Virus record (IMG/VR): IMGVR_UViG_3300021061_000001
DNA length: 64,000 bases
DNA from: a virus
Reading direction: 5' to 3' (one strand)
The notes beneath the pieces are model-generated. The model ran no database searches and was not told where the DNA came from. It worked only from the letters and a program-made list of their open reading frames with translations. Positions within the stretch are counted from its first letter, which is position 1; each line of letters starts with the position of its first letter. Both the position numbers and the translations under genes were made by a program. Below are positions 12,398 through 57,372 of this stretch, piece after piece.

Positions 12398-14652
12398 CCG
12401 ACTTCGCCGAGACGGATCTGGGGCTCCTTTACCTGGCTGACGGCTTCTCGCCGGTCATGCGCTGGGACGGCATCACGCCCTCGATGGAACTGGCCGGGCT
12501 GGCCGCCCCAGCCACGGCCCCGGCCATCACCTCGCCGGGCAGCGGCAGCACGCTCGGGGTGTACTACGCCTACGTCCGCTACAAGGACCGATTCGGCTTC
12601 AAGTCGAACCTGTCGCCGATCTCGGCCGCGGCCATCGTGAAGGGGAACCTGACCGGCACCATCACGGGGGCGACCAACGCCGACCCCATCGTGATCTCGG
12701 CGGCCGGCCACAACCGGGCGACTGGGGACGAGGTGACGATCACCGGCGTGGGGGGCAACACGGCGGCCAACGGCACATGGACGATTACGGTCATCGACGC
12801 TAACTCTTTCTCTCTCGACGGTTCGCAGGGGAGCGGCGCGTACACCTCGGGAGGCTCATGGACGGCCAGCCCCATCATCACCTACACCGGCCTGGCCGTG
12901 CCGACCGATCCCAAGGTGACGCGGCGGCAGATCCTTCGCAACACCGACGGCCAGGCCGACGTGTTCTACGTGGACATCGACACCGACGACCTGACCTCCA
13001 CCACGCTGACCTCGACCCGCACCGACACGGAACTTGCCACGCAGGAGGCTCAAGCGATCCTCGACGATCTGGCCCTGCCGCTGGCCAATCGGCGGGACGT
13101 GCCGCCCAACCACAAGCCGTACCTGTTCCACCTCCTGTCGCGGCTGTTCTACCTGGGGTCGGTGGACTACAAGCGCGGACACGTCAAGGTGACGGTGGCT
13201 TCCACGACGGTGACCGGGGTCGGCACGGACTGGACCGAGGCCATGGAGGGCCGCTACCTGTACGTGACCGGGGCCAACGAATCGTACCTGATCTCGGCGG
13301 TGGACGAGACGGCGCAGACCCTCACCCTGTCCACGGCCTACCTGGGGCCCACGGACCTGTTCGCTCGCTACGCGATCCGGCCAGCACCGGCGGAGCGGCG
13401 GACGATGTACTGGTCCGAAGCTGGCGAACCGGAGGCGGTGAGCGTTTTCAATGCGTTGTCGATCCCGGAGAACTCCGACGAGATCACGGGCGGGTTCGTG
13501 CGCGGCTCGTTCGGTTACATCCTGGAGAAGCGGCACATCCACAAGCTGACGTTCCAGGACGATCCGGCGCGGGACGGGGGGCTGTTCCCGGCCGCCGACC
13601 GGGGCTGCATCAACAACCGCTGCTGGGTGCTGGTGGACTCGACGGCGTACATGCTGGACGAGGAGGGGGTTCATCGTTTCGGCGGCGGCGAAAGCGGGTC
13701 GGTATCGGACGCGATCCAGGACCTGTTCCGGCCGGGGGCGAACGTGCCCTATGCCATCAACTGGCAGGCGCAGGAGCAGTTCCATGCCGGGCACTGGCGG
13801 CAGCACTCGACGATACGCTGGTTCGTCTGCTTCGAGGGGGATTACCTGCCGCGGCACGCGCTCTGTTACAACTACCGCGCCGACAGGTGGTGGATCGAGC
13901 GCTACCCGTTCGCCATCGCCTCGGCGGCCAAGGGGGAGGTCAGGGGCGTGCCGTGTGTGTTCCTGGGCGGAGATGGGCGGCAGGTGTTCGTCTCCTGGGA
14001 GGGGCACCTGGATGTGGCGCAGTCATCCGCAGGAACGGTTCGTGGTACGGCGACATCGGCGGGCGTCCTGTCCCTGTCCGACTCGGGCGCTAGCTTCCCT
14101 GCGTCGTTCGTGGGAGCCCCCGTGGTCATCGTCGCGGGCAAGGGCAAGGGGCAGGAGCGGCGGATCGTGGACGTGAGCGCCACCACGCTCTACCTGGACC
14201 GTCCCTGGCTGGACCGGCCCGACACGACCTCGATCTACCAGGTGGGCGGCATCCAGTGGCAACTGCGGCTGTCGGACTTCCGCTTCGCCGTGGCGGAGGA
14301 GCACAAGGACCGCCGCGTGGAGCTGGTGTTCGAGCCGCAGTCCAGGGCGGCCCTGCTTGACATGCGATACTACTACGACTTCTCGGATACCCCCGTGACC
14401 CAGCGCGAGACAGTGCAGGGCGCGAAGCAGCGGGGCTTCTCTTCGACGGCGGGGCAGACTGATCTGGTGCTGGACCTGACGCGCGTGCGCGGCGTGGCCA
14501 GCCACTTGCTGCCCGACCACCGCGAAGACAGCAGCGAGGGGACGCGCTTCGTGCAACTGGAGTTGGGCGGGTGCTCCAACGGCGAGGAGCAGAAACTGCG
14601 GCAGGTGACCATGAACGGCGTCACCATGCCCGGGCAACTGGAGGCACCCTGA
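12394..14652 (+). CDS. large virion/tail protein (752 aa)
   Basis: Long ORF with balanced composition, coupled at both ends. I recognised no family motif. Confidence 0.8.
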   Translation: MTDFAETDLGLLYLADGFSPVMRWDGITPSMELAGLAAPATAPAITSPGSGSTLGVYYAYVRYKDRFGFKSNLSPISAAAIVKGNLTGTITGATNADPIVISAAGHNRATGDEVTITGVGGNTAANGTWTITVIDANSFSLDGSQGSGAYTSGGSWTASPIITYTGLAVPTDPKVTRRQILRNTDGQADVFYVDIDTDDLTSTTLTSTRTDTELATQEAQAILDDLALPLANRRDVPPNHKPYLFHLLSRLFYLGSVDYKRGHVKVTVASTTVTGVGTDWTEAMEGRYLYVTGANESYLISAVDETAQTLTLSTAYLGPTDLFARYAIRPAPAERRTMYWSEAGEPEAVSVFNALSIPENSDEITGGFVRGSFGYILEKRHIHKLTFQDDPARDGGLFPAADRGCINNRCWVLVDSTAYMLDEEGVHRFGGGESGSVSDAIQDLFRPGANVPYAINWQAQEQFHAGHWRQHSTIRWFVCFEGDYLPRHALCYNYRADRWWIERYPFAIASAAKGEVRGVPCVFLGGDGRQVFVSWEGHLDVAQSSAGTVRGTATSAGVLSLSDSGASFPASFVGAPVVIVAGKGKGQERRIVDVSATTLYLDRPWLDRPDTTSIYQVGGIQWQLRLSDFRFAVAEEHKDRRVELVFEPQSRAALLDMRYYYDFSDTPVTQRETVQGAKQRGFSSTAGQTDLVLDLTRVRGVASHLLPDHREDSSEGTRFVQLELGGCSNGEEQKLRQVTMNGVTMPGQLEAP

Positions 14653-16974: not shown

Positions 16975-18435
16975 ATGCCATTCACCAATCCACTCGGGGC
17001 CATGATCGGCTGGACCGAGCAAGACGAGGAAGAACTTCTGCGCCAGCGCCGCGAGGGACCGCTGGCCGGCCGCATGCCGGGCATCGTCGGCGGCGGCAGG
17101 CTGGGCGGCCTCGGAGCCGTGGCGCAAGCGGTTGGCGATGCCTCGCTGGGGGCGATGGAGGTAATGCCGCCACCGCCAAGCCCGGAGCGGCCTGCGGTCG
17201 AGTTGCCCGGCGCGAGGCCGCAATTGCCGATCACGCGCATCGTCGCCGACCTGCCCGACCAGAACCGGCCCAGGTCCGGTCCCACCAGTCCACCACCGCC
17301 TACGAGTCCTCCGACGCCGACCTCGCCGGCGCAGGCTGCGCCGGTACGGGCGCTGACCTTCGGCCCGCAGAGCACGTTGCCCAACGGGGTCGGGGTCCGC
17401 GATGTAGCCTTCGAGACGGCCGAGTTGGCTTTTGCTCGACAGCAGAATCCCACCCTCCCCATCGTCTCCTCGCCCTACTTCGATCCCAGCGTGGCCCCCA
17501 CCATCGTTGGCGGTCCCGGTAACTATGCCGTCATGCGCGGCGGCCAGGTGACGGCGGCACAGACACCGGCCGGCGGAGTGATGCCGAACCCGAACGACCC
17601 GGCCTTCTGGCAGGCGGTCAACGGCCAGATGCGCTTCAATGGTGACGCCTTCGGAGGGGCGATGCAGGGCTACCAGGCCGGGCTTCAGAATGCAGCGAAC
17701 CAGGCCAGACTGGATCTGGCGAGGCAGGAGGCGTTCGGCGGCATGGGGCTTGGCGGGCAATTCGTTCCGGGGCGGCTTCAGACCGATGCCTTGCAGGCGG
17801 CCAATGCGGGCAGGGCGGCGGAGATCCAGCACGGCCCCGATGCGGTCAACGAGCGGAACTTCAGCAGTTTCCTCCAGGCCACGCTTCAGCAGGGGGGCAC
17901 CATCCAGGATGCACGGCGGCGCTGGGCCGAGTCGGGGCTGGCCCTGCCACCGTCCCAGGGCGGATCGCCGCAGTCTCCAGCCTCGTTCGGCGCACCTACA
18001 GCGACAACGGGCGCAACAACTGTGGCGCCGACCGGCCCGCAGCGTGGCCCGACTCCGGTTCAGCAGTCCCCCGAAACGGTAATGGAACAGGTCTTGGCCG
18101 AGATGATGCGAGCGCAGACCCCGCTCCAGGGGGCGACGGGGCCGCGACCGCTGGGGCAGGGGGACGTAGCAAGCTTCATCCAGCGACTGCCGCCGGGATT
18201 TCTGGACCAGAACATCCAGCAGTTCATGCCGTTCATGATCCGCCGCTTCGGGCCGCAAGTCATGGACCAGTGGTTCACCGGGCGGTCCTGGCGTGGCAGT
18301 TCATCGCCGGACGCGGTAACTCGTCAGGCGGTCATGAACGCCGTCAACCGGGTCCGACCCGGCACCGTCGGCGGCAGCATCGCCAACCCGCAGTCGCCGT
18401 GGTGGACCCTGTACTTCGGCGGGCGGGAGCGGTGA
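16975..18435 (+). CDS. Pro/Gln/Gly-rich internal virion-type protein (486 aa)
   Basis: Long ORF downstream of the terminator. Its composition is typical of ejected or internal proteins. Confidence 0.7.
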   Translation: MPFTNPLGAMIGWTEQDEEELLRQRREGPLAGRMPGIVGGGRLGGLGAVAQAVGDASLGAMEVMPPPPSPERPAVELPGARPQLPITRIVADLPDQNRPRSGPTSPPPPTSPPTPTSPAQAAPVRALTFGPQSTLPNGVGVRDVAFETAELAFARQQNPTLPIVSSPYFDPSVAPTIVGGPGNYAVMRGGQVTAAQTPAGGVMPNPNDPAFWQAVNGQMRFNGDAFGGAMQGYQAGLQNAANQARLDLARQEAFGGMGLGGQFVPGRLQTDALQAANAGRAAEIQHGPDAVNERNFSSFLQATLQQGGTIQDARRRWAESGLALPPSQGGSPQSPASFGAPTATTGATTVAPTGPQRGPTPVQQSPETVMEQVLAEMMRAQTPLQGATGPRPLGQGDVASFIQRLPPGFLDQNIQQFMPFMIRRFGPQVMDQWFTGRSWRGSSSPDAVTRQAVMNAVNRVRPGTVGGSIANPQSPWWTLYFGGRER

Positions 18436-18633: not shown

Positions 18634-18694
18634 CGCATCTCTCCTCAAGTAGTGACCCCGCGCCAACCGTAGGTCACGACGGAGATCCGGTCAA

Positions 18695-21600
18695 ATGCCG
18701 CAACTCCCCGACCCCTTTGACTTCATCGGTCAACCACGCCCAATCCGCCCTCGCGCTGCCGACATCCTGCCGCCGCAGTCCCCCGAGGAGGAGCAGTCCC
18801 TGCTTGGCCAGCTCGGCTCGGGGCTCCTCTCCGGCCTGGGCTACATCGGCTCCAGCCTCGACAAGGTGCGCCGCGCCGCCTGGGCACTGCCGACCGGCAA
18901 CGCGCGCGAACTGGCCGCCATCATCCCCTTCTCCGACGCCCTCGGCATCACCGACCCGACCCAGGCCGTGCATGGCTCGGATTTGCTCGGCGGGGACGAA
19001 AATACGCCGTTCCTGTCCGGCGAAGGGCTGGGCGGTCTGGCCCTCGACATCGCCCTGGACCCGCTCACCTACCTCTCCTTCGGCGGCTCGGCCGTCTCCA
19101 AACTCGGCCAGGCCGCCAAGAAGGCCGGTGTCCTGCCCAAGTCGGGCGCCGCTCGTGCCGCCGGGCTGGCCGCAGCTTCGCCCGAGGCGGCCAAGCTGGC
19201 CCAGTACACCGGCCAGACGGTCGCCGATGTCGCCGGCAAGTCCCTGGGCGGGCACATCGGTGTCGGCCTGCCATGGCCCGGAGCGGCCAACTTCTGGACC
19301 GCCGATTTGACCCCTCTGGGCAACACCCTGTCGGGGGCCGCACAGGCCGCTTCTGGCGCCGTCGGAGCCCTTCCCGTGGTCGGGAAGCCTTTGCAGGCCC
19401 TGGGGAGCGGCCTGGGCGAAGCTGGGGCCGCTACGGGGCGTGCCTGGAACGCCCTTTTTGACCGTGACGTACTCGGCCAGCTCAGCCAGAAAGGTCAAGA
19501 ATACGGCCGTGAACTGTCCCTGGCCCGCAAGCTGGCCCAGGAGCAGGCTTTGGAATCGGTCGGTAGTGCGGTCAAGGCATATGGGCCAGACGCGCTCAAG
19601 GGTGGGCAGGAAGTGCGCGGCATCCTGGAAGGGACCTTGCCGGCCGGGCAGGCGTCGGCAGGCGGTCAGCGGGCGGCACCCGTCATCAAGAACGCGCAGG
19701 AGGCTTTTCTGGCGGAGGCGAAGGAGTGGGGGGTGCCGGTTGGGGAGATCGACAACTATTTTCACCGTTCTGTGGTGAAGCCCGAACTGGACGTGGCCCA
19801 CGGCGGCAAGGGGGCCGGATCCGGGCTGACGGTACGCTCCCCCTCGCAGATCGCGCGCGAGGAGATCTTGACCAACATCCCGGGCGGCACGGCGGCGATC
19901 GAGAAGATGGTGGCGGACCCGTTCCTATCCGGCACGGCGCGCGGGGCAGGGCAGGACACGGCGGCAGCCGCGCAGCACATCATGCAGAACTACGCCATCC
20001 AGGACCCGGTGAAGGCGAAGAACCTGGCGGAGTTTCTGTATAGCCTCAGCCCGGAGCGGCAAAAGATCGGCCTGTTCGCCAAGGAGGCCATGACGGATTT
20101 CGAGGAGGGGCTGAAGCAGATCGCGCAGTCCACGGCCACGGCCAAGACCATGATCGGCTTTCTGGCCAAGGAGGCGGTGACGGGGGCGAAGCCGCCCGGG
20201 GGCCGGTCGCTGGGGGAAGTGCTGGCCAACGTCGGGCTGGACCGGAACGTGGCCGACATCAAGATGCTCGACGCCCTGGTCGCCTCGGGCAAACATCCAC
20301 CGTTTCGCGGCAATCCGGCCCAGCAGGTGCTGACGCTCGACAACCACTTCGTCAGCCGCGAAGTGGCCGACGCCCTGGAGCGGAGCCTGCAAGCCTTCAC
20401 CATGCCGCGCGTCCTGGAGCCGGTGGTGAAGGTGTGGGACTCGATCCAGAACCTCACCAAATCGTTCCTGACATCGCCCAACCCGGCCTTTCACGCCCGC
20501 AACGCCGCTTCGGGCCTGTGGCAGAACTACATCCTGACCGGGGCCAAGGCCCTGCCCGACGCCTACCGCGAATCGGCCGCCCTCCTGCGCGACCCGGCCC
20601 ATGTGGTGAAGGGGCTCAGCCAGCACCCGGAGTTTCGCGGCCTCTCCGACGCCGCCGCCACGGAGATCCTGCGCCAGAAGGCGTTCACCTCGGGTCTGCT
20701 CGGGGCTGGACCGGCGCAGGACGTGGTCGGGCAGGCGGCGGCGCAGGAACTTCTCATGCGATTTCCGGGTGCCATGCCGGGCCGCAAGGTCGGACTCGAA
20801 GCCGTACCCGACTACCTTCAGGGGCTGGTCGGGCGAGGTCAGCCGGGGACGGCGGCGGAGAAGGCGAACCCCCTGGCGGTGCGCGGCGTGGGCGGCAGGG
20901 CGGAGAGCAAGTTCGCTCCTGTCGCGGCCGGGCAGAAGCTGGGCAACGAGGTCGAGGACCTGGGCCGCCTGGCCGGGTTCGTGGGGCTGGCACGGCAGGG
21001 CTACAGCCTTGATGTGGCGACCGAGATGGTGAAGGCGGCGCACGTGGACTACACGCGCCTGACCGGCTTCGAGTCGCAGGTGATGAAGCGGCTGGTGCCG
21101 TTCTACAGCTTCGCGCGCGGCAACGTACCGCAGCAATTCCGCCAGATCCTGGAGCGGCCCGGCGGCATCACGGCCAACATGGTGAAGGCCAGCAGCCAGG
21201 CCCGCGACGAGTTCGCCCCCGACTATCTGGGGCAGGGACTAGCCATCCCGGTCGGCGGGGACGATAAGACGCGGCGCTACCTGTCCAGCCTGGGACTGCC
21301 GTTCGAGCAGCTTGGTGAGTTTACGACCTTGCGAGGCTTGGCCGGACAACTGTCGCCTCTTCTCAAGTACCCTTACGAGCAGCTATCCGGCCAGCAGTTG
21401 TTCTCTGGCCGCGACCTGCGCGATCTGCATTCGAGACTGGGCGACCTCGGCGTCAACCTGCCGCAGCCGGTGGAGAACCTGCTGATGAACTCGCCCCTGT
21501 CGCGGCTCATCGGCATGGGTTCGACGCTGGTGGATCCGCGCAAGAGCTGGGCGGACGCGGCGCTGAACCTGGCGACGGGGGCAAGGGTGACGGACGTGGA

Positions 21601-21796
21601 CATGCAGAAGGCGAGGCAGCAGGCGATTCGCAAGGCGCTCGATGAGGAGTTGCGTGGCCAGCCTGGCGTGGGCGTGTTCAGCCGGATGTATTTCCGCCCG
21701 GAAGAGATCCAGAACATGGACCCACGTGAACAGGCCCTGGCTCGGCTATACCTGGCCCAGGAGCAGCGGGCGCGGCAGCAGCGGGCGCAGAGGTAG
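18695..21796 (+). CDS. very large virion/internal protein (1033 aa)
   Basis: This is the longest ORF in the block. GGAGA RBS. I recognised no family. Confidence 0.85.
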   Translation: MPQLPDPFDFIGQPRPIRPRAADILPPQSPEEEQSLLGQLGSGLLSGLGYIGSSLDKVRRAAWALPTGNARELAAIIPFSDALGITDPTQAVHGSDLLGGDENTPFLSGEGLGGLALDIALDPLTYLSFGGSAVSKLGQAAKKAGVLPKSGAARAAGLAAASPEAAKLAQYTGQTVADVAGKSLGGHIGVGLPWPGAANFWTADLTPLGNTLSGAAQAASGAVGALPVVGKPLQALGSGLGEAGAATGRAWNALFDRDVLGQLSQKGQEYGRELSLARKLAQEQALESVGSAVKAYGPDALKGGQEVRGILEGTLPAGQASAGGQRAAPVIKNAQEAFLAEAKEWGVPVGEIDNYFHRSVVKPELDVAHGGKGAGSGLTVRSPSQIAREEILTNIPGGTAAIEKMVADPFLSGTARGAGQDTAAAAQHIMQNYAIQDPVKAKNLAEFLYSLSPERQKIGLFAKEAMTDFEEGLKQIAQSTATAKTMIGFLAKEAVTGAKPPGGRSLGEVLANVGLDRNVADIKMLDALVASGKHPPFRGNPAQQVLTLDNHFVSREVADALERSLQAFTMPRVLEPVVKVWDSIQNLTKSFLTSPNPAFHARNAASGLWQNYILTGAKALPDAYRESAALLRDPAHVVKGLSQHPEFRGLSDAAATEILRQKAFTSGLLGAGPAQDVVGQAAAQELLMRFPGAMPGRKVGLEAVPDYLQGLVGRGQPGTAAEKANPLAVRGVGGRAESKFAPVAAGQKLGNEVEDLGRLAGFVGLARQGYSLDVATEMVKAAHVDYTRLTGFESQVMKRLVPFYSFARGNVPQQFRQILERPGGITANMVKASSQARDEFAPDYLGQGLAIPVGGDDKTRRYLSSLGLPFEQLGEFTTLRGLAGQLSPLLKYPYEQLSGQQLFSGRDLRDLHSRLGDLGVNLPQPVENLLMNSPLSRLIGMGSTLVDPRKSWADAALNLATGARVTDVDMQKARQQAIRKALDEELRGQPGVGVFSRMYFRPEEIQNMDPREQALARLYLAQEQRARQQRAQR

Positions 21797-24121: not shown

Positions 24122-24172
24122 GAACTATCCGGAAATTCCGGATAGTTCATTTGGAGAGTTGTGGAGAGTTGT
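24122..24172. promoter_or_regulatory. 27-bp perfect palindrome followed by a 10-bp x2 tandem repeat
   Basis: GAACTATCCGGAA-A-TTCCGGATAGTTC spans 24122-24148. GGAGAGTTGT occurs twice at 24153-24172. The element lies 18 nt upstream of the start at 24104. Confidence 0.6.
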
Positions 24173-33614: not shown

Positions 33615-34015
33615 TTCTCTTCGCCGTTGCCGTCGCCGTTGCCGTCGCCGTAGCCGTTGCCGTCGCCGTAGCCGTTGCCGTTGCCGTCGCCGTTGCCGTC
33701 GCCGTAGCCGTTGCCGTCGCCGTAGCCGTTGCCGTTGCCGTCGCCGTTGCCGTTGCCGTTGCCGTCGCCGTAGCCGTTGCCGTAGCCGTAGCCGTAGCCG
33801 TAGCCGTAGCCGTCGCCGTCGCCGTTGCCGTTGCCGTAGCCTTTGCCGTTGCCGTAGCCGCCTACGGCGGCGGCCTGGATGTACTCGTTGTCTGAGTAGT
33901 CAGAGGCGTTCCCGGCAATGACGCCGTGCTCCTCAACCCACTTCTTCACGCCGTCGATACAGGCGCCAGCGTCCAAGACGTCAGCGACGGTGACTCGCTC
34001 CTTGTACTCGAACAT
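33611..34015 (-). CDS. protein with a small N-terminal domain and a long Gly-(Asn/Asp/Tyr) dipeptide repeat (134 aa)
   Basis: A 55-aa N-terminus (GACIDGVKKWVEEHG) is followed by about 75 aa of GNGDGYG-type repeats, encoded by GCCGTT/GCCGTC/GCCGTA hexamers. Confidence 0.65.
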   Translation of the reverse strand: MFEYKERVTVADVLDAGACIDGVKKWVEEHGVIAGNASDYSDNEYIQAAAVGGYGNGKGYGNGNGDGDGYGYGYGYGYGNGYGDGNGNGNGDGNGNGYGDGNGYGDGNGDGNGNGYGDGNGYGDGNGDGNGEEN

Positions 34016-35084: not shown

Positions 35085-35118
35085 CTCTCGTGCGCACGCT
35101 GGGGCATGCGCACGAGAG
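35085..35118. promoter_or_regulatory. 12-bp perfect inverted repeat in the divergent region upstream of int
   Basis: CTCTCGTGCGCA - N10 - TGCGCACGAGAG lies 45 nt before the int start. Confidence 0.5.
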
Positions 35119-35162: not shown

Positions 35163-36110
35163 GTGTCCACGATCCGCCTTTTCTCGGGCAACCAGCCCGA
35201 ACCAGCCCTCACCGTGCGCCAGGTCATCGCCGCCTACCTTGACCAGAAGGCGCTCGACCACCTCGCCGGCGCTTTCAGCCTCAAAGCCCTGGAATCGGCC
35301 CGCCATTACCTTGGCCGCTTCGCCAAGGACTTCGGCGATCTGCCCGTCAGCCAGTGCCACAAGAACGATCTGACACACTGGCTGCTCAAGCACCCGGAAT
35401 GGGAATCGACCTTCACCCGCCACGATGCCGTCGGCCGCGTGGTGACGTGCTTTTACTGGGCCGAGGACGAGCTGGGCATCGTCAGCCGCTACCGCCGCCC
35501 CAAGTTCGTGGGCGCCCCCCTGCGCCCACGGCCGGCCATCGAGCCGGCCGAATACCGCGCCATGCAGCGCTATGCTCGCCGGGCCAGGAACACCCGCCGC
35601 ATGCTCCGCACGCGAAACGTATTCCGTGCCGCCTTGTCCTTCCTGTGGCGGACGGGTGCCCGGCCCTGCGAGATGCGCACCGCTCAATGGACCGAACTCG
35701 ACTGGCGCCGAGAGATCATCGTCACCAAGAACAAGACCGAGAAGGCGACCGGCAAGGACCGCATGATCCCCGTCGGCTCCGTCATGCACCTCTTGCGCTG
35801 GCTCTACCGCCGCAAGAAGCCCGGTCAGACGCACATCTTCACCAACACCCTGGGAAAGCCCTGGACGGCCGACCGCTTCGCCAAGGAGTTCCGCCGCTAC
35901 GCCAACCTGGCCGGCGTCCGCCAGAAGGTGAGCGCCTACTGCCTGCGCCATGGCATGTGCGTCCGGCTGCTGGAGAAGGGCGAGGGGGAGAGGCAGATAG
36001 CCGACGTGCTCGGCCACGAATCGACCCGCTACGTGAGCTGGTACGGCAGAACGACCCGGACCATGGCCGACTACCTCAACGACGTGATTCGCCGGAAGAA
36101 GCGGCCCTGA
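35163..36110 (+). CDS. int: tyrosine recombinase / phage integrase
   Basis: 315 aa, GTG start with a GGAGG RBS. It carries WRTGARPCE (Arg), CLRHGMCVR (His-x-x-Arg), VLGHES (His) and YVSWYGR (Tyr). Confidence 0.9.
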   Translation: MSTIRLFSGNQPEPALTVRQVIAAYLDQKALDHLAGAFSLKALESARHYLGRFAKDFGDLPVSQCHKNDLTHWLLKHPEWESTFTRHDAVGRVVTCFYWAEDELGIVSRYRRPKFVGAPLRPRPAIEPAEYRAMQRYARRARNTRRMLRTRNVFRAALSFLWRTGARPCEMRTAQWTELDWRREIIVTKNKTEKATGKDRMIPVGSVMHLLRWLYRRKKPGQTHIFTNTLGKPWTADRFAKEFRRYANLAGVRQKVSAYCLRHGMCVRLLEKGEGERQIADVLGHESTRYVSWYGRTTRTMADYLNDVIRRKKRP

Positions 36111-36346
36111 TTCGCCGACACCTGGCGGGTGTGTTTCGGCCTGTGAGAGGAAGTTGCGCCCCAAGGTCGTGCGCGCGGCCCATCTAGGGTCACGCCCCGA
36201 CGCGCGGCACATTGGTCGGTCTGTGACCGGCCAGTCAAGCGGGTTACCCGCCCAATCGCGGAGGTTTTCGTACTCGACGCGGCGTGCCATTTGGGACTGC
36301 CTTGGTGGACCTTGGATCTGGCTTGGTCAAAGCATAGGCGGCTTAC

Positions 36347-36393
36347 TTGCAAAATGCAAGATCAAAATTTCCGCAAATTTTGCAATTGCAAAA
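36347..36393. promoter_or_regulatory. two TTGCAA-type palindromes upstream of the first HTH gene
   Basis: TTGCA-AAA-TGCAA spans 36347-36359. The perfect 16-bp TTTTGCAATTGCAAAA spans 36378-36393. Confidence 0.5.
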
Positions 36394-36415: not shown

Positions 36416-36670
36416 ATGAGCATGCACAAGGATTCGTCAGGTATGCCAACCTCGGAACTTCAGGAGTTCATGAACCTGAAGGGTTGGAACCGAACCAAGC
36501 TGGCAGCGGCTCTCGACATAACCGCCAATACGGTAGATCGTTGGTTCATGGCCGGAAAAGTCGCTGGCGGTCCCCCATCCATCCTTCTCCGCGAGTGGCT
36601 GGAGCGCGAACGCGCCCGGGCCGCCCACGAGGGGAACGGTCGCAAGCAACTCACTGGCTCCGCTAGCTAA
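36416..36670 (+). CDS. HTH DNA-binding protein (84 aa)
   Basis: WNRTKLAAALDITANTVDRWF looks like a helix-turn-helix. ATG at 36416. Confidence 0.6.
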   Translation: MSMHKDSSGMPTSELQEFMNLKGWNRTKLAAALDITANTVDRWFMAGKVAGGPPSILLREWLERERARAAHEGNGRKQLTGSAS

Positions 36671-36721
36671 ACCCTGCGCGGAGCCACATCATGGAACCAT
36701 TCCGCAGTTTCTGCGTCGGAC

Positions 36722-36750
36722 TTGACCAGTCTGGTCAAGCGTCCTATCCT
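36722..36750 (+). promoter_or_regulatory. promoter/operator module TTGACC-N5-GGTCAA-N6-TATCCT
   Basis: The -35-like TTGACC forms the left half of a 17-bp palindrome. A 17-nt spacer leads to TATCCT. The module lies 19 nt before ATG 36769. The same layout occurs at 43674-43702 on the minus strand. Confidence 0.6.
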
Positions 36751-36768
36751 CCAACAGAGGAGGACGAC

Positions 36769-37002
36769 ATGCAGACCAAACCGCGCGCCTTGTTCACCCC
36801 GGAACTCATCAAGGAGATCCGCGCCACGCTGGGGCTCACGCTGGAGCAGGCCGCGGCCCGCGCCGGGGTAACCCTGTTCACCTGGCACCGCTGGGAGTCG
36901 GGCAAGCGCCATCCGCGCTGGCAGCATCAGCAGACGCTCGAAGAGATGTACGAATCAGCGAAGCGGAAGCGGCCGAAGAAGCCGCAGACGGAGGGTGAGT
37001 GA
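36769..37002 (+). CDS. XRE/Cro-CI-type HTH regulator (77 aa), candidate repressor
   Basis: GAGGAGGA RBS. LIKEIRATLGLTLEQAAARAGVTLFTWHRWESG is a typical HTH_3 pattern. Confidence 0.7.
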   Translation: MQTKPRALFTPELIKEIRATLGLTLEQAAARAGVTLFTWHRWESGKRHPRWQHQQTLEEMYESAKRKRPKKPQTEGE

Positions 37003-38911: not shown

Positions 38912-38989
38912 CCGCAACTCGCGAGCGTACTCTTGCGCGTCCTCGCGTGAGCCGAAAGTCTGCTCGCGATTGAGGCCACAATCGCGGCC
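38912..38989. repeat. 78-bp perfect repeat, copy 1 (startless gene remnant)
   Basis: It is identical to 40406-40483. Here its reading frame has an upstream stop at 39014-39016 and no start codon. Confidence 0.9.
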
Positions 38990-40393: not shown

Positions 40394-40927
40394 CTACTCC
40401 TTGGCCCGCAACTCGCGAGCGTACTCTTGCGCGTCCTCGCGTGAGCCGAAAGTCTGCTCGCGATTGAGGCCACAATCGCGGCCTTGGCCCTCGGTCCACT
40501 CGTACCAGGACACGGTGTAGCCGTTGCCGCTGATCGTCACCGTCACGTCTTCGTAATTCTTCATCGTCCTACCCTCCGTTAAAAAGATGGCCGTCGCCTC
40601 AATGCTGTCCGTTCTCGGGGCCGCTTTGCCGCTCGGGTCGCTGTTTAGCAGCATCCACAATTCGGCCTCGTCGAGTCTGACGGCGACCCATTCGCCGTCG
40701 GACCAAACAAACCATCGCCATGACCAGTCGTTAGCGTTATTGAGCCTCGCAATCCGCTTGTACTCGTCGTACACGGAACGGACGTAGCCTGTAATCTGCG
40801 GCTCGTTGCCTGGACTGCTAATGCGCAGACTGGTCTGGCCGTTGCGATCTGTCCACCGCTCTGGCGAGTTAGTCCACGCCAACCCGACACGGCTGCGGCG
40901 AGTGATGGTTAGTGTCGTTGCGGTCAT
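40394..40927 (-). CDS. hypothetical protein (177 aa) with a nested in-frame start at 40564 (56-aa product)
   Basis: ATG at 40927 has an AGGAGA RBS. An internal copy of the leader TTTTTAACGGAGGGTAGGACG precedes the in-frame ATG at 40564. Confidence 0.55.
   Translation of the reverse strand: MTATTLTITRRSRVGLAWTNSPERWTDRNGQTSLRISSPGNEPQITGYVRSVYDEYKRIARLNNANDWSWRWFVWSDGEWVAVRLDEAELWMLLNSDPSGKAAPRTDSIEATAIFLTEGRTMKNYEDVTVTISGNGYTVSWYEWTEGQGRDCGLNREQTFGSREDAQEYARELRAKE
40406..40483. repeat. 78-bp perfect repeat, copy 2 (coding)
   Basis: It is identical to 38912-38989 and encodes GRDCGLNREQTFGSREDAQEYARELR. Confidence 0.9.
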
Positions 40928-41702: not shown

Positions 41703-42923
41703 TTACGCCATAGCCAGCTTGTAGGCTACCTGCTTCATCTGGTCGCCGGTTCCAGCGATCGCGCTCTCGAATCGCCGCGTACGGCGCTCGTCCAGGTCCT
41801 TCGCCTGGCGGCCAAGCGTGTTATGATCTGCGTGGTCGGTGATCGCGTTAAACGCCTTCCAGGCCGTGCCATCTTCGGCGATCTGCTCGCGGTGATAGCG
41901 GTCGATGATGTCAGCCAGGGCGGCGCGGTGGGCTGCTTCCTTGCGGGCCAGCGCCTTTTCGGCTTCCTCCTTGGCTCGCAGGTCGTGCGCGGCCGCCAGT
42001 TCGCGTACCAGCTCGCGAGACTCCTCGATGCGCATGATCTCGTCCAGGACATTGCGGGCGTAGGGGCGGATCTCCAGGCGCTTGCTTGCCATATGGGCGG
42101 CCGCAAGGGCAAACGCCTCGTGCGCCTTGGCCGTGTTGGCAAGCGCCCTTTCGGCATTGGCAAGCTTCTGTCGCACTGATCCGGTATGCCTGATGCTGAT
42201 GCCCTTCACGCGATCGCTGATCGACGCGGTAAAAGTGTTGTTGCAGACAACGCGCACCGATGTCGGATAGCAGTAGAGCGCGCCGGACCCATCGTGCGCC
42301 ATGGTCACCAGTGCGTATGCCTCGTTCCGGTCCTGCTTGCCGAAAACGAAGCATTGCTTGGGGAGCTGGGCCAACATCCAGACTTTGCGGCCGCCGTCCA
42401 GGGCCCCCGCGGTTTCATACTTCGCCCCGAAGCTTGAAAGCGCCCCGTCCAGGAGGCCGAAACCGTCCTTATTCTGGATCGGCGCATATCGGCTGCCAAC
42501 CGCGCCAAGAAAAGCGCCCGTGTCCTGCCTGACGATTCCCCAAGCGTCATCCGCAATGCGAGTCTCCCCGTTGTACGTGTAGGTGAGCTGCTGCTTCACA
42601 ACCTGCCAGTCCAGGGAAGCCAGGCGGATTGCATCCGCGCTCGAAACCGCTTCGCGCACGAGTACGCCGAGCCCGTGCCATGGCAGCGTGCCGGCGGCCA
42701 TGATCGCCACTCGGCCAGTGCTGTTGTCCAGCGCGTGGCAGGAGTTGTAGTAATCGTGGTTCTCGCTCACGATCTCCGGCCCGGCGCCGTTGCCAATTTC
42801 GGTAGCTTCGAGCATGGCCCGCAATTCGGCGCGGCGCTTTTCGGCGTGATCCCCCTTCGTCGATCGCAGCATTTCCAGCTCTTTTCCGAGTTGAGAAAAC
42901 AGGCTAGCCCATTGCTGGCCCAT
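41703..42923 (-). CDS. DUF932-like phage/plasmid protein (about 406 aa)
   Basis: The motifs LPWHGLG, IVRQDTG..LG.VG.RY.P.QN, GGRKVW, HDGSGA and VRVVCNNT fit my memory of DUF932/TIGR03299. The start is uncertain (ATG at 42923; the track start is TTG at 42938). Confidence 0.7.
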   Translation of the reverse strand: MGQQWASLFSQLGKELEMLRSTKGDHAEKRRAELRAMLEATEIGNGAGPEIVSENHDYYNSCHALDNSTGRVAIMAAGTLPWHGLGVLVREAVSSADAIRLASLDWQVVKQQLTYTYNGETRIADDAWGIVRQDTGAFLGAVGSRYAPIQNKDGFGLLDGALSSFGAKYETAGALDGGRKVWMLAQLPKQCFVFGKQDRNEAYALVTMAHDGSGALYCYPTSVRVVCNNTFTASISDRVKGISIRHTGSVRQKLANAERALANTAKAHEAFALAAAHMASKRLEIRPYARNVLDEIMRIEESRELVRELAAAHDLRAKEEAEKALARKEAAHRAALADIIDRYHREQIAEDGTAWKAFNAITDHADHNTLGRQAKDLDERRTRRFESAIAGTGDQMKQVAYKLAMA

Positions 42924-43449: not shown

Positions 43450-43622
43450 GACAGCCCCTTCACGATTCCAACAGCCAGGAATACCAGCCCGGTAATGTCA
43501 GCGGACCACGCCGGGAATCCCAGCGTCACCAGCCCGGCGCCGATCACGATGCCGATTCCCAGCATGTGGAATACCCTGGCTAGGGCAGTCAGTTCCGGCA
43601 CATGATCCCGATTCCGTTTCAT
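43446..43622 (-). CDS. small two-TM membrane protein (58 aa, below the ORF-track cutoff)
   Basis: ATG at 43622 has GGGAGGGG 6 nt upstream. The translation is MKRNRDHVPELTALARVFHMLGIGIVIGAGLVTLGFPAWSADITGLVFLAVGIVKGLS. Confidence 0.55.
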   Translation of the reverse strand: MKRNRDHVPELTALARVFHMLGIGIVIGAGLVTLGFPAWSADITGLVFLAVGIVKGLS

Positions 43623-43639
43623 CGCTTGCCCCTCCCGGT

Positions 43640-43726
43640 AAAACCGCTCTGGTCAAATTGACCAGTCAAGGGAAGAATAAACCACTTGACCGAAATGGTC
43701 AAATAGATTTTTTCCGAATTGGTCAA
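43640..43726 (-). promoter_or_regulatory. early promoter with clustered TTGACC/GGTCAA operators
   Basis: On the minus strand, TTGACC-atttc-GGTCAA-gtggtt-TATTCT spans 43702 down to 43674. The perfect palindrome TGGTCAAATTGACCA lies at 43650-43664. A further GGTCAA lies at 43721-43726. Confidence 0.6.
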
Positions 43727-43861
43727 AAAACCGGAAAGACCTGAAAAGGCCAGAAGATCGGCAAAGGAAAAAAACCGGAAGGGACGAAACCGAGAAAGGA
43801 AAAAAGACCGGCCCAGCTCGAAAACCGCCCGATTCCCAGGGAATCAGCCCAAAATGTGACC

Positions 43862-44270
43862 CTAAGCGGCCCAGAGTACCGTACAGGGAACACAGAACCA
43901 AGGAATACGGCACCAGCACCACCAGCCCAGCACCAGAACCAGCAGCACCAACAGAGCAGTACGGGGGCAGGAACCAGAGCACGCTCGGGGCATGATCCAG
44001 GCATGACCTGGCATATGCAACCAGCAGCACCAGTCCCGTCCCCGGGCCAGCCACCAGCCCAGCCACCAGCCCAGCCACCAGTCCAGCCCCTCATACACCA
44101 ACACCTAACCCCGGCATCAGCACATGACCAGCCCCACTACCAGCCCTGCACCAGCAGCAGCACAGTACGTAAGCTGCTGCAGCAGCAGCACTACAGCAGA
44201 GCGGGGCAGGAGCAGGAGCAGGAGCGGGGCAGGAGCGGGGGCCGGCGCAGGAGCAGGAGCAGGCCGGTGG
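43862..44270. repeat. T-depleted CA-rich / GA-rich low-complexity tract with short tandem repeats
   Basis: CCAGCCACCAGC occurs three times at 44047-44082. GCAGGA hexamer runs lie at 44204-44264. CAG/CAC/CCA runs are present. All reading frames are open because + strand T is rare. Confidence 0.75.
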
Positions 44271-44340
44271 TATACCCGGAGTGCCCCCAGATGGGGGGGC
44301 TGGCGGGTCTTCATATGCTGGCGGTGGGGTTTTTCGGACA

Positions 44341-44668
44341 TTATCGTGTTTTGGAACTGGAGCAGATCCTGTTGCTGCCCCAGAGTTTACGAGGCTTGCC
44401 GAGATGAGATTGCTTGGTGACGCCAGTGAGCCAGGACCATGTTTGGCCGGTTTTGATTCCAGAGACGGTGTTGACGCTGATTCGGTATCTGGCTGCAAGC
44501 GTTTGAAGTTTCGCCCCGGCCGGTTCCTTCTTTGAACGTGACATAGTCGTAACCGTACTGGTTCTTGCAGGATTTGATCCTTCTGTCGCCTTTCCAGACG
44601 CTGCCATCAGAGCCGATGCGAAACCCTGGCTGGCCCATGATCTCTCGGTATTCAACGGTTTCGTTCAT
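44341..44668 (-). pseudogene. NUMOD4-like N-terminus and HTH C-terminus in two frames (frameshifted homing-endonuclease-related gene)
   Basis: Frame 1 gives MNETVEYREIMGQPGFRIGSDGSVWKGDRRIKSCKNQYGYDYVTF. Frame 2 gives KLQTLAARYRISVNTVSGIKTGQTWSW. The junction is near 44515-44540. Confidence 0.45.
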
Positions 44669-46396: not shown

Positions 46397-46496
46397 CTTT
46401 TCCTCACTGGTGTGGTATTAGTCCAAAACGGACAAAAACAGTCTACGCCGCTTGGCCAAAGGGTGCAAGAAATTTTGTCAAAAACGGTCTAAGTCC

Positions 46497-46526
46497 TTGA
46501 CTGAGCGAGCGGCTCGGCTGTAAATT
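46497..46526 (+). promoter_or_regulatory. candidate sigma70-like late promoter
   Basis: TTGACT - 18 nt - TAAATT. The spacer contains the dyad CGAGC-G-GCTCG. The host is unknown, so the consensus may not apply. Confidence 0.35.
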
Positions 46527-46715
46527 GTGAGCAAGAAGCCGCAAGGTGGCGGCGCATCCACACCTCGAAAAAGCGGACCAAGAGATGCAAGCAAGCGTCG
46601 TTGGCAACCCAAAAACCCCCACAAGATAACGCCCGCTCGGATTTGGCAAGGAACCGACAACCAGCATTTGGCGACATGGGCGACTGATCCCCGCCTGTGA
46701 CACCAGCAAAACAGG

Positions 46716-46758
46716 TAGCCGTCGAGGGCTCGACACCTCGGCGGCTATTTTCGTTTTT
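46716..46758 (+). terminator. intrinsic terminator 45 nt upstream of the first late gene
   Basis: A 12-bp stem (TAGCCGTCGAGG / CCTCGGCGGCTA, one G-U pair) with an 8-nt loop is followed by TTTTCGTTTTTG. Confidence 0.7.
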
Positions 46759-47973: not shown

Positions 47974-49122
47974 ATGGACCAAGCAACGCTTCGCGCGATC
48001 AACACCACGATCGCCAAGTATTTCAAGACCGTCGAAGAGGCGGTTTTGCGCAAGCGCGTTGTCCTCGCCATGCTCATGAGCAAGGGCAATATCCACATGG
48101 GGGCCTCGGGCCTCAAGATGAACTGGAAGATCCGCTTCAGGCGCACCAGTTCGCAGCCGCTCCTGGGCGGCCAGACCCTGACCTTCGTGCCGCGCGACCA
48201 GTGGCGCACGGCCGAACTGGGCTGGCGCGGTTTCGCCTCCACCAACTCCATCGAGGAGTTCGAGCTGGAGATGAACAAGGGCAAGGAAGCCATCGTCAAC
48301 GTCTGGTCCAACGCGGCCAAGCTGCTCGCCTCGGACATCGAGCAGAACTTCGCCGACCAGCTCTACACCGACGGCGAGGCTTCCGGCCGCGAGTCGGACC
48401 TGCACGGCTTCGAGTCGATCTTCGGCACCAACGGCGTTTCGACCAAGCGCCCCATCGGCATCAACGACGATAGCTACGCCGGTGTCGCCACCGACCTGGC
48501 CTCCGAGGGTGGTTCGTGGTCCACGACCGGCACCAATACGTCGTACACCGACTGGCCCGACGGCCGCGGCGACTACCACTACGACTTCTTCACCCCGCTC
48601 GTGGTCAACTACTCCTCCACGATCTCGACCAGCGCCGGCGCCGGCAACATCGGCTGGTCGGCCTCGACCAAGACCTGGCTCAACACCTGCATCGAGGCGC
48701 TGCGATTCGGCATCCTGGGCTGCTCCAAGAACGACGGCCCCGACGCCAAGATGGACCTCATCATCCTCGAACAGGCCATGATGCGGGACCTCAAGAACAA
48801 GCTCCAGGCCGAGGAGCAGATCACGGTCACGAAGAACACCGGCCCGGGCAGCCCCTACGCCCTGGGCTTCACCGACACGATCAACGTGGACGGCGTGGAC
48901 TGCATGTGGGAGTACGGCGTGCCGGCCAACGTCGGCTACGGCCTGCCTTTGGGCCTCATCGAGCTGCACTCGCTCAAGCCCAAGCTGTTCAACCCCGGCG
49001 GCCCGGACTTCCGCCCCGAGGATCAGTCCTGGCGGATCTGGACCAAGTTCATGGGCAATCTCAAGTTCGGCAACGAGAAGGGCGGCGTGCGGAACTTCCT
49101 CAAGTTCGCCGCTCTCGGCTAA
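47974..49122 (+). CDS. major capsid protein (382 aa)
   Basis: The call rests on size, position after the scaffold-like gene, composition, and the decoration-like gene and terminator that follow. The family was not confirmed. Confidence 0.65.
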   Translation: MDQATLRAINTTIAKYFKTVEEAVLRKRVVLAMLMSKGNIHMGASGLKMNWKIRFRRTSSQPLLGGQTLTFVPRDQWRTAELGWRGFASTNSIEEFELEMNKGKEAIVNVWSNAAKLLASDIEQNFADQLYTDGEASGRESDLHGFESIFGTNGVSTKRPIGINDDSYAGVATDLASEGGSWSTTGTNTSYTDWPDGRGDYHYDFFTPLVVNYSSTISTSAGAGNIGWSASTKTWLNTCIEALRFGILGCSKNDGPDAKMDLIILEQAMMRDLKNKLQAEEQITVTKNTGPGSPYALGFTDTINVDGVDCMWEYGVPANVGYGLPLGLIELHSLKPKLFNPGGPDFRPEDQSWRIWTKFMGNLKFGNEKGGVRNFLKFAALG

Positions 49123-55295: not shown

Positions 55296-55706
55296 ATGCC
55301 GAAGAAGAAGTCCGCGAGCAAACGAACCGAAGAAGCCATGCTCGTGGAGACGATGCGCGGAGCCCTCCAGACCCGCAACACCGGCATGCTCCGCGAGATC
55401 ATGGAAGAGACGATGAACCTGGCCGGCGGAACCAGGTGCTTCGCGAAGCTCTTGTGGGATGCGTACACGTCCTCTGACGCCGGGCCGCTCTTGCGGTCAC
55501 GCATCCTGGACGTGTGGATGAGAGCCCTGATGGTGACCCAGCCCAAGGGCGACCCCGACAACGATCTTGGCGCACTCAGCGCCGAGGACATCGACAGGGA
55601 GATGAAGGAGTTGATCGGTGCCGTTCGATCCGAGCAAAATGCCGCCGACGCCGCCCAAGAGGACCACCACCTCGAAGGCGACGACGACAGCGCCGAAGAA
55701 GAATAG
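55296..55706 (+). CDS. candidate small terminase subunit (136 aa)
   Basis: Assigned by position directly upstream of, and overlapping, the large subunit gene. It has a basic N-terminus and an acidic tail. Confidence 0.45.
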   Translation: MPKKKSASKRTEEAMLVETMRGALQTRNTGMLREIMEETMNLAGGTRCFAKLLWDAYTSSDAGPLLRSRILDVWMRALMVTQPKGDPDNDLGALSAEDIDREMKELIGAVRSEQNAADAAQEDHHLEGDDDSAEEE

Positions 55707-57372
55707 CGTGCCCGAAGCGCCGCCGCCTGGGATGCCCGAGCACAAGCTGGCCCGCTTCCGCAAGCTGCTCGTCGCTCGCGCCAAGCTGCGCATGGAAGGG
55801 CTCAAGCTGTTCGAGCCCATGCCGGTGCAGACCGCCTTCCTCTCCTCCTCCTGCCGCGAACGCATCGTCTATGGGTCCAACCGCAGTGGCAAGACAACGG
55901 TGGCCATGGTGGACCTGGCCCGCATCCTGACCGGCCAGGACCCGCTCGGCCGCCTGCCGCGCGAGAACCTGATCTGGTATGTGGTTGGCAAGGACGGCCG
56001 CGAGCTGGCCAACGTCGTTCACAAGAAACTGTTCATGCCCGCCTGCTTCCAGATCATCCGCGACGAACGGACCCGGCAGTGGCGAGCCTTCCGGCCTTAT
56101 CAGGAGGCGGACGCCCAGAGAGAGCAGGAAGCACGCTGGGCTCCGCCCCTGATCCCGGAGCGGTTCGTCCGCGAGGTGTCGTGGGAGAACAAGAAGGAAG
56201 GGCTGCCCAAGCTGGTGAAGCTCATCAACGGCTCGGAGATCCACTTCTTCTCGGGCAACGCCCGTCCGCCACACGGCTCGTCGATTCACGGGGCGAACTT
56301 CGACGAGGAAGTGCCCGACGGCTGGTATGCCGAGATCGCGGCCCGCCTGGTGGACTACCGCGGCTACTTCACCTGGTCGGCCACGCCCGAGCAGGGCACG
56401 GACCAGCTCCTCATCCTGCACGAACGGGCGATGGGGGAGATGGAGCGGTTCATGCAGACCGGCGTCAAGCCGTCCATCGAAGAGTATTTCATGGCCATCC
56501 ACGGCAACCGGCACCTGACCCGGGAGCAGGTGGAGGAGTTCGAGTCGAAGCTGACCGACGAGCAGAAGCGGGTCAAGGTCTACGGCGAGTTCCTGCAGCT
56601 TGGCGCGTCGGTGTTCCCCGAGTTCCTGCCATCGCTGCATGTCGTGGACCAGTTCCCGATCCCGCTCGACTGGACGCGCTACCTTTACATCGACCCCGGT
56701 TATCAGGTGTGTGCGGTCCTGTTCATGGCCGTGCCCGACCCTCGCGACGAGAAGCACGCCGGTTACAGGTACGTCTACGACGAACTGTACCTCTACAACT
56801 GCAACGCGGACCTGTTCGGCCGCAAGATGCGCGAGAAGTGCGAGGGGCAGGACTTCGAGGCGTTCCTGATCGACGAGCACGAGGCGCGCAAGCACTCGGC
56901 CGGCGACGGCAAGACTCTGGCCTCGCAGTATTCGGAGGCCCTGAGCCGCTACAAGATTCGTTCGCGCACGACCGGCTACGGTTTCTCGCCCGGCTCGGAC
57001 GATCCCAAGGCCGACGTGGCGGCCATTCGCGACTGGCTGCGTAACCGGCCCGACAAGGGGCCGATCCTGCGCGTCTTTCCCAAGGACGCCATCCCCAACT
57101 TCCACTACGAGATCACGCACTGGCGGTTCAAGAAGGACGCCAAGGGGCTGGTTACGGATGAACCCGAATCGCGCGGGCGCGTTCACCTCATGGCGGGGCT
57201 GCGCGGGCTGGTGCAGTGCGATCCGCAATGGGTCAGGCCCAAGCACATGCCGGCACCGGACGAGATCCAGCGCATCATCGCCGAGGACCGCAGGCGCGAG
57301 AAGGCCCTGTATGGCGACGGCCCCGCGGTGTTTTGCGGCCCGCGCGGCGCGCGGGTGGGGGTGGGGGCATGA
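55618..57372 (+). CDS. terL: terminase large subunit
   Basis: Walker A is GSNRSGKT and the Walker B-like segment is GANFDEE. The product is 584 aa. GTG start has AAGGAG 7 nt upstream. Confidence 0.85.
   Translation: MPFDPSKMPPTPPKRTTTSKATTTAPKKNSVPEAPPPGMPEHKLARFRKLLVARAKLRMEGLKLFEPMPVQTAFLSSSCRERIVYGSNRSGKTTVAMVDLARILTGQDPLGRLPRENLIWYVVGKDGRELANVVHKKLFMPACFQIIRDERTRQWRAFRPYQEADAQREQEARWAPPLIPERFVREVSWENKKEGLPKLVKLINGSEIHFFSGNARPPHGSSIHGANFDEEVPDGWYAEIAARLVDYRGYFTWSATPEQGTDQLLILHERAMGEMERFMQTGVKPSIEEYFMAIHGNRHLTREQVEEFESKLTDEQKRVKVYGEFLQLGASVFPEFLPSLHVVDQFPIPLDWTRYLYIDPGYQVCAVLFMAVPDPRDEKHAGYRYVYDELYLYNCNADLFGRKMREKCEGQDFEAFLIDEHEARKHSAGDGKTLASQYSEALSRYKIRSRTTGYGFSPGSDDPKADVAAIRDWLRNRPDKGPILRVFPKDAIPNFHYEITHWRFKKDAKGLVTDEPESRGRVHLMAGLRGLVQCDPQWVRPKHMPAPDEIQRIIAEDRRREKALYGDGPAVFCGPRGARVGVGA

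Follow-up and report, generated by a model that had tools for sequence, protein, structure and literature searches.

In a 64,000-nt stretch of viral DNA (IMG/VR record IMGVR_UViG_3300021061_000001; the whole stretch is called the window here), the same palindrome-containing promoter module was found in front of the gene for a small XRE-type helix-turn-helix (HTH) protein, HTH2, and in front of an early operon. The favored reading, to which I assign a probability of roughly 0.55, is that HTH2 binds these palindromes and would repress its own promoter (P_HTH2) and two early promoters (P_E and P_IE). HTH2 belongs to a rightward cassette of four genes, which encodes a tyrosine integrase, a second small HTH protein (HTH1), HTH2, and a Cys-rich protein, and the surroundings of this cassette are all leftward. 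The integrase marks the cassette as a lysogeny cassette and shares its strand with HTH2. Since HTH2 lies with the integrase and opposite all the early genes, it is the leading candidate for the role of immunity (lysogeny-maintenance) repressor. The coordinates of the features are collected in Table 1.

Table 1. Genes, operons, promoter modules, and operator clusters of the window. Centers are relative to the predicted transcription start.
Feature	Position	Strand	Details
Tyrosine integrase	35163-36110	+	Pfam Phage_integrase 1.2e-19; phrog_1 2.7e-25
HTH1, small HTH protein	36443-36670	+	Gene calls and domain search
M1 (P_HTH2)	36721-36750	+	TTGACC-AGTCT-GGTCAA-GCGTCC-TATCCT; -35 TTGACC at 36722-36727; -10 TATCCT at 36745-36750
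HTH2, XRE-type HTH protein, 77 aa	36769-37002	+	Ribosome-binding site GAGGAGGA 5 nt upstream; GC3 0.88
Cys-rich protein, 79 aa	37006-37245	+	phrog_22735 at 6e-9; no Pfam match
GerE/LuxR-type HTH regulator, 92 aa	37782-38060	-	Penultimate gene of the P_E early operon
DUF932 gene	41703-42923	-	In the P_E early operon
P_E-driven leftward early operon	43622 to 37257	-	About 15 small genes, including the DUF932 gene, a P22 Y8K6-like gene, and the GerE/LuxR-type regulator
P_E operator cluster	43626-43726	-	Five sites with up to 3 mismatches; centers -51, -27, +1, +19, +33
M2 (P_E)	43674-43702	-	TTGACC-ATTTC-GGTCAA-GTGGTT-TATTCT; operator center -27 from the predicted start at about 43667
Leftmost minus-strand operon	46396 to 44665	-	Downstream of P_IE
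P_IE degenerate sites (three)	46419-46491	-	Centers about -50, -27, +6
M3 (P_IE)	46468-46440	-	TTGCAC-CCTTT-GGCCAA-GCGGCG-TAGACT; 6-5-6-6-6 architecture as in M1 and M2; palindrome degenerate; predicted start near 46433

The window represents a novel temperate phage with a GC content of about 64%, which is known only from metagenomes. It has a large terminase gene (55618-57372) and genes for an adaptor-like protein and a major-head-like protein. A megablast search against 50,697 phage genomes gave no nucleotide match to the window, and the integrase query found nothing in the genome collection. Two public assemblies contain this phage: ERZ27252495, with a contig of 68,103 bp, and Logan, with a contig that is 100% identical. 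The source samples are ERZ27252495 and SRR7004197. The lineage is deep-branching and uncultivated, and few, indeed almost none, of its proteins have recognizable homologs. The early operon driven by P_E runs convergently to the HTH2 transcription unit. It contains an exact 78-bp direct repeat (38912-38989 and 40406-40483) with the palindrome GCGATTGAGGCCACAATCGC in each copy. On the other side of the cassette, a recombination/replication arm with exonucleases and a DnaD/O-like initiator occupies 34.9 kb to 22 kb. GCCGT(T/C/A) hexamers form a long tandem array at 33620-33830, within a minus-strand ORF in which they would encode Gly-rich repeats. It is precisely at this array that the 68-kb public contig is broken, and the first 229 bases of that contig are unmatched in the window. 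The leader of the integrase gene (35085-35118) has a 12-bp inverted repeat, CTCTCGTGCGCA...TGCGCACGAGAG.

The sequences and the coordinates given for the two modules in the original prediction, 36722-36750 on the plus strand and 43702-43674 on the minus strand, were exact. In the window scan that it proposed, TTGACC-N5-GGTCAA occurs exactly twice in 64 kb, while 0.01 copies were expected from 100 dinucleotide shuffles, none of which reached two. Both exact copies are in non-coding DNA. The palindrome of M1 is as described but longer than that, being a perfect 19-bp palindrome, CTTGACCAGTCTGGTCAAG, at 36721-36739. The reading of the flanking hexamers as -35 and -10 elements with a 17-nt spacer agrees with an independent consensus scan, in which both modules were called sigma-70-like and are among very few intergenic promoter-like matches, although sigma-70 rules may not fit the host exactly. 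In both modules, the left half-site is the -35 hexamer. M1 and M2 are identical at 21 of 29 positions, and the identity is limited to the three hexamers, while the spacers and the flanks are unalignable. Thus, a maintained function is indicated rather than a recent duplication. In addition, TTGACCANNNYGG is present five times in the window, always within the M1 and P_E regulatory regions. A one-mismatch copy of the palindrome, TTGACTTCATCGGTCAA, was noticed at 18717-18733, 22 nt inside the start of a 1033-aa ORF (18695-21796), with a GGTCAA at 18689 just upstream. It is probably a chance occurrence in a coding sequence, though it lies at a gene boundary.

The genes behind the two modules were also placed correctly. 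Two gene calls on the public contigs agree on the start of the HTH2 gene at 36769, which a strong ribosome-binding site also supports, and on its length, and the first gene of the minus-strand operon starts at 43622 with a GGGAGG ribosome-binding site in front. The GC3 value falls from 0.88 inside the HTH2 ORF to 0.54 in the in-frame upstream extension (36691-36768), which indicates that M1 is non-coding. The perfect site lies 39 bp ahead of the HTH2 start codon. Transcription from M1 is predicted to start at about 36757, and therefore the center of the operator is at about -27. A dimer of HTH2 would recognize the 17-19 bp palindrome through half-sites whose centers are 11 bp apart. With the left half-site as the -35 element and the right one within the spacer, a dimer on the palindrome would exclude RNA polymerase. 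As judged from the promoter positions, this geometry argues for repression by occlusion and not for activation.

Is the motif confined to these two modules? The original prediction counted two, and both are real, but auxiliary sites at 43.6-43.7 kb escaped it, as did a third module at 46.4 kb. At P_E, five sites were observed, whereas composition-matched shuffles of the region had 0.045 on average, and not one in 5000 had as many as five. Five TTGACC hexamers lie within 90 bp there, a clustering matched by one of 20,000 random placements. The cluster includes three direct copies of TTTGACCANNNCGG and an everted perfect palindrome, CTGGTCAA-A-TTGACCAG (43649-43665), whose 8-mers are the same as those of the M1 site. 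Within the window, no other cluster of sites is as strong or as elaborate. The auxiliary TTGAC sites have no -10 element at a usable distance in the sequence, and hence they are predicted to be binding sites rather than extra promoters. The third module, M3, precedes the leftmost minus-strand operon and is flanked by two more weak sites. The three sites at P_IE compare with 0.046 expected, and none of 5000 shuffles reached three. The first three centers at P_E agree with those at P_IE (Table 1). Over the whole window, 51 sites with up to three mismatches were observed against 22.6 expected; nine of the 51 fall in three short regulatory stretches, each of which expects about 0.03-0.05. From these positions, both early promoters appear to have a lambda-like tripartite layout, while the HTH2 promoter would have a single perfect operator. 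No palindrome-type site was seen in the window scan before the recombination/replication arm (34.9 kb to 22 kb), and thus this arm would need indirect control under the HTH2 model.

Several other elements were noticed around these regions. A rightward promoter-like site, TTGACT-18-TAAATT, lies at 46497-46526, and about 190 nt past it there is a strong terminator-like hairpin (46713-46750; 15 pairs and a T-run) just ahead of the first rightward gene (46767). The ORF that comes next (47974-49122) has a match to a major head protein. This arrangement recalls late operons under the control of antitermination. The single-copy sequence CTATCCGGAAATTCCGGATAG (24125-24145) is a perfect 21-bp palindrome located 20 bp ahead of the start of a minus-strand gene (24104); it may serve as a terminator or as the operator of some other regulator. 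On the minus strand at 44340-44668, short ORFs (GFRIGSDGSVW...) look, by eye, like what may be left of a frameshifted homing endonuclease gene of the HNH/NUMOD4 type.

It was considered whether the palindromes need any dedicated phage regulator at all. They might be what promoters of the host need (TTGACC as the -35 together with an element in the spacer), the site of a host factor, or RNA hairpins for termination or processing on read-through transcripts. TTGAC is indeed the -35 consensus, but no contact of RNA polymerase with the GGTCAA half is known. As RNA, M1 folds at -16.3 kcal/mol (z-score -2.1) and M2 at -12.5 kcal/mol (z-score -2.9); M1 lies 51 nt past the stop codon of HTH1, and the M2 palindrome was also listed as terminator-like in the consensus scan. 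However, M1 has no U-tract, and identical arms in two places are not needed for the function of a hairpin. M3 (z-score +0.42) and the auxiliary half-sites are unfolded, yet the motif and the spacing are kept. Moreover, the motif is absent from the relative L018 (see below) despite otherwise homologous early genes. The RNA-hairpin reading is thus weak, and an explanation without a phage regulator is improbable as a whole. Among host factors, FNR/CRP-type sites were excluded by spacing: an FNR site has the spacing TTGA-N6-TCAA, while the spacing here is TTGA-N9-TCAA.

The DUF932 protein gave access to relatives of the phage. Among the loci obtained in this way, only L018-L021 are syntenic; ten IMG/VR loci (L008-L017) and seven further ones (L022-L026 and L028-L029) were rejected because they have DUF932 alone in common with the window. 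Scans based on the GerE-type protein gave one locus, which is unrelated. When IMG/VR was scanned for exact matches to the complete module, five loci were obtained, which were dismissed as chance matches (GC 40-55%, no similarity to the window), and a literature search with the two hexamers and 'operator' found nothing relevant.

L021 has the same layout as the window: its early operon, its GerE-type gene, and a gene homologous to that of the 138-aa protein of the window are accompanied by an HTH-integrase cassette in convergent orientation. The identities are 61% for DUF932, 54% for the GerE-type protein, and 41% for the 138-aa homolog. Two XRE genes are present. The first encodes an NTVxRW-type helix like that of HTH1, and TGTTGCC-N3-GGCAACA occurs twice upstream of it (13509-13568) and nowhere else. 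The idea that this palindrome recurs at the early promoter of L021 was rejected, and the protein was reassigned to the HTH1 class. The second XRE gene encodes the recognition helix HTWFRWEN, which resembles FTWHRWES of HTH2. The early promoter of L021, aligned to M2, reads TTGACT-TTTTT-GGCAAA-GGGAAG-TAGGTT. Three homologous regulatory regions of L021 were tested, namely those upstream of the HTH2-like gene, at the early promoter, and at the leftmost promoter. Each has one degenerate and weak match with 2-3 mismatches (individual P values of 0.019, 0.041, and 0.040), while the region upstream of the other HTH gene has none. The weakness of these matches, in a single informative relative, counts against the HTH2 model. 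L021 also has intact HNH_3 genes at several places.

L018 comes from the same sample and its DUF932 protein is 76% identical to that of the window. It has an HTH1 homolog (45% over 47 aa) and lacks homologs of both HTH2 and the GerE-type protein, and no match to the motif was found in its equivalent regulatory regions. Instead, CACGTG is present three times at its early promoter and nowhere else in 21 kb. Thus, the motif and the HTH2-like gene are both present in L021 and both absent from L018, although these are only two relatives and the GerE-type gene co-varies in the same way. Such a pattern would be expected of heteroimmune relatives, as far as two genomes can suggest. The HTH1 counterpart of L018 has private palindromes, TTGTCAAG-N23-CTTGACAA, at about 17008-17046. 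In the early operon of L018, the 9-mer GCAACGAGG occurs seven times (9694, 9986, 11209, 11313, 11947, 12319, and 13170), often extended to GCAACGAGGGA. A start codon follows closely on the copy at 9694, so that the 9-mer may be a conserved motif for translation initiation.

Just upstream of the early promoter, between the leftmost operon and the P_E operon, there is a gene-free stretch of about 1 kb in the window (43795-44350, minus strand) and also in L021 (6936-7560) and L018 (8836-9560). It opens with a conserved, -10-like string, ACGATAATGTC. A CTCCTG-rich arm is followed by a GCTGGT-rich arm, together forming a long hairpin (-267 kcal/mol, z-score -2.74), and the stretch closes at a terminator-like hairpin with a T-run (43827-43809). 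The layout and the 5′ end are kept in both relatives, while covariation is almost nil across the three sequences. No Rfam family was found at the gathering score, and there were only chance-level matches near the promoter. The stretch might encode a structured non-coding RNA or act as an origin.

All sequence-level predictions for an autoregulated repressor acting on an early promoter hold. The weaker part of the original prediction is the identity of the binder, since it was drawn from adjacency only, and the 92-aa GerE/LuxR-type protein is as closely associated with the sites. The palindromes may be operators of another phage regulator, chiefly this protein, acting alone or, Cro-like, together with HTH2. 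It would then exert feedback on its own operon (at P_E and P_IE), and it would shut off the HTH2 promoter in lytic growth. LuxR-type dimers bind palindromes of 18-20 bp, which speaks for this reading. The GerE-type gene lies inside the operon driven by M2 and is made from P_E; it is conserved in L021, where the degenerate motif persists, and its absence from L018 coincides with that of the motif. Each site would be autoregulatory or a logical target under this reading, too. On the other hand, the sole solitary and perfect 19-bp site lies directly ahead of HTH2, which is the classic layout of XRE autoregulation, and a center at -27 is no activator position. The recognition-helix regions of the GerE-type proteins of the window and L021 are as divergent as those of the HTH2-like proteins, so that conservation does not favor the GerE-type protein. 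I regard this reading, with the GerE-type protein as a rival or an additional, Cro-like binder, as unlikely but serious.

What kind of protein is HTH2? It scores 35.6 bits with the Pfam model HTH_31 (cut-off 27) and 24.9 bits with HTH_3 (cut-off 23), which places it among XRE/Cro-C1-type proteins. The domain search found the HTH alone, with no S24 peptidase, C-terminal oligomerization, or sensor domain. Thus, HTH2 is not a cleavable repressor of the lambda CI/LexA-like type, and the lack of these domains, which leaves no evident route of induction, counts against the HTH2 model. The match to the MqsA-family antitoxins (TIGR03830), which are defined by an N-terminal CxxC zinc domain plus an HTH and a score above the cut-off, reached 34 bits of the 61.8 required and covers the HTH part alone. 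The scores with Aca2/YdiL (20.1 bits; Pfam cut-off 23.8) and the CTX-phi RstR-family repressor (NF041951; 21.4 bits; NCBIfam cut-off 80) are likewise too low. The controller (C) proteins of restriction-modification systems are recognized by adjacent restriction and methyltransferase genes and a C-box, while the neighbors of HTH2 are the integrase, HTH1, the 79-aa protein, and early genes, and the nearest PDB match has an E value of 0.024. In summary, HTH2 is a member of the XRE superfamily and of none of the S24-type, MqsA, Aca2, RstR, and C-protein families.

Homology searches added little. An exhaustive HMMER search with HTH2 gave 935 matches, most of which are multi-repeat HTH proteins. The best single-domain match, P0167, is 57% identical over the matched stretch and 49% over the full-length alignment. 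P0167, P0169, P0233, P0257, and P0271 are relatives of HTH2 obtained as protein sequences only. The alignment-based scans of metagenome, genome, and viral collections that followed gave nothing, and no relatives of HTH2 were found in IMG/VR. A search of 5.8 billion proteins with HTH2 and the 79-aa protein returned only the queries themselves. The single-sequence AlphaFold model of HTH2 is multi-helical and poor (pLDDT 61), and Foldseek found nothing below E = 1.7 with it.

The 79-aa gene is probably co-transcribed with HTH2. It was considered whether HTH2 autoregulates only this local two-gene cassette as an antitoxin-like, Aca-like, or exclusion module, while the true immunity repressor is encoded elsewhere, for example by HTH1, and the copies at the early promoters are bound weakly or incidentally. 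The sub-threshold matches of HTH2 to MqsA-type antitoxin HTH, Aca2, and RstR models and its weak matches to Aca3 and C-protein structures point in this direction, but all the antitoxin, Aca, and RstR family matches are below the curated cut-offs. HTH1 adjoins the integrase, is conserved in L018, and has palindromes of its own, CTTGCAAAATGCAAG (36346-36360) and TTTTGCAATTGCAAAA (36378-36393), which differ from the TTGACC motif. These TTGCAA-type palindromes are confined, as palindromes, to the upstream region of HTH1. Furthermore, the early-promoter cluster is the strongest in the window, which is unexpected for an incidental target. A purely local role for HTH2 is therefore very improbable. 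HTH1 is outside the TTGACC system; it looks like a second, separate autoregulated regulator beside the integrase and is possibly excisionase-like.

In the scheme with HTH2 as the repressor, the single perfect site of M1 would mediate negative autoregulation. At P_E, one perfect site and four weaker ones (about -51, +1, +19, and +33) would allow cooperative and tighter repression of the leftward early genes, and the three weak sites at P_IE would likewise support cooperative repression. The GerE-type product of the early operon might switch on later genes further down the cascade. A more specific version can be imagined, in which immunity would depend solely on HTH2 as a 77-aa XRE repressor without a sensor, with two lambda-like tripartite operator sets at separate leftward promoters and a private autoregulatory operator 7 kb away, all shared with a LuxR/GerE-type protein in the role of Cro; induction would occur via convergent transcription or an antirepressor, without cleavage. 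This version is improbable in its entirety, and no pair of repressor and anti-repressor from two unrelated HTH classes is known to have been described. If the HTH2 scheme is confirmed, it would be a compact switch for a phage lineage without a cultured member, in which a single small regulator would act through a 17-19 bp operator at three promoters with graded sites. It would anchor the annotation of the early and lysogeny regions of this lineage, and its parts could be used as an orthogonal repressor/promoter pair.

How does this arrangement compare with known systems? The C proteins (C.AhdI, C.Esp1396I, and C.Kpn2I) are XRE proteins of about 80 aa which are autoregulatory and have palindromic boxes over their own -35 elements. 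HTH2 resembles them in its size, its class, and the box over its own -35 element, and C.Kpn2I (4yba) is among the nearest solved sequences, although the E value given above is not significant. In contrast to the C proteins, HTH2 has no adjacent restriction/methylase genes, and its putative sites are also present at distant phage early promoters. The Aca and MqsA/HigA-type HTH autorepressors are small XRE proteins that repress their own operons via a promoter inverted repeat. HTH2 shares the size and the inverted repeat, along with the weak matches to the Aca2_YdiL and MqsA models. However, the gene order is the reverse of that of acr-aca loci, there is neither a toxin nor a zinc-binding domain as for MqsA/HigA, and extra operators at early promoters are no feature of those systems.

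The repressor c of the Streptomyces phage phiC31 acts at a 17-bp inverted repeat found at several separated early promoters, and the stoperators of L5 gp71 are likewise dispersed. The phage studied here is similar in that one candidate repressor motif is found at separated early promoters rather than at a single divergent switch. It differs in having only three target regions and a protein that is much smaller and unrelated in sequence, and it is known from sequence alone.

The lambdoid CI/Cro systems (lambda, 434, and P22 c2) have tripartite OR/OL regions with pseudo-palindromes of about 17 bp, where the repressor controls its own synthesis and a small second regulator shares the operators. 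Here, too, operators of about 17 bp and of graded quality are spaced by roughly 23-28 bp across the -35 and -10 elements of the early promoters; the putative repressor would control itself, and a second small regulator may share the operators. Unlike in lambdoid phages, the candidate repressor gene lies 7 kb from the early promoter in a convergent orientation with a private single operator, two separate leftward promoters would be targeted, and the 77-aa protein has neither C-terminal oligomerization nor S24 self-cleavage domains and no sequence similarity beyond the XRE fold. The same palindrome overlaps core elements both of the promoter of the putative regulator itself and of the early promoters, which is the functional hallmark of this class. 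This pattern is the ordinary signature of a phage repressor with its operators, and conceptually it is the lambda paradigm repeated, which is unsurprising.
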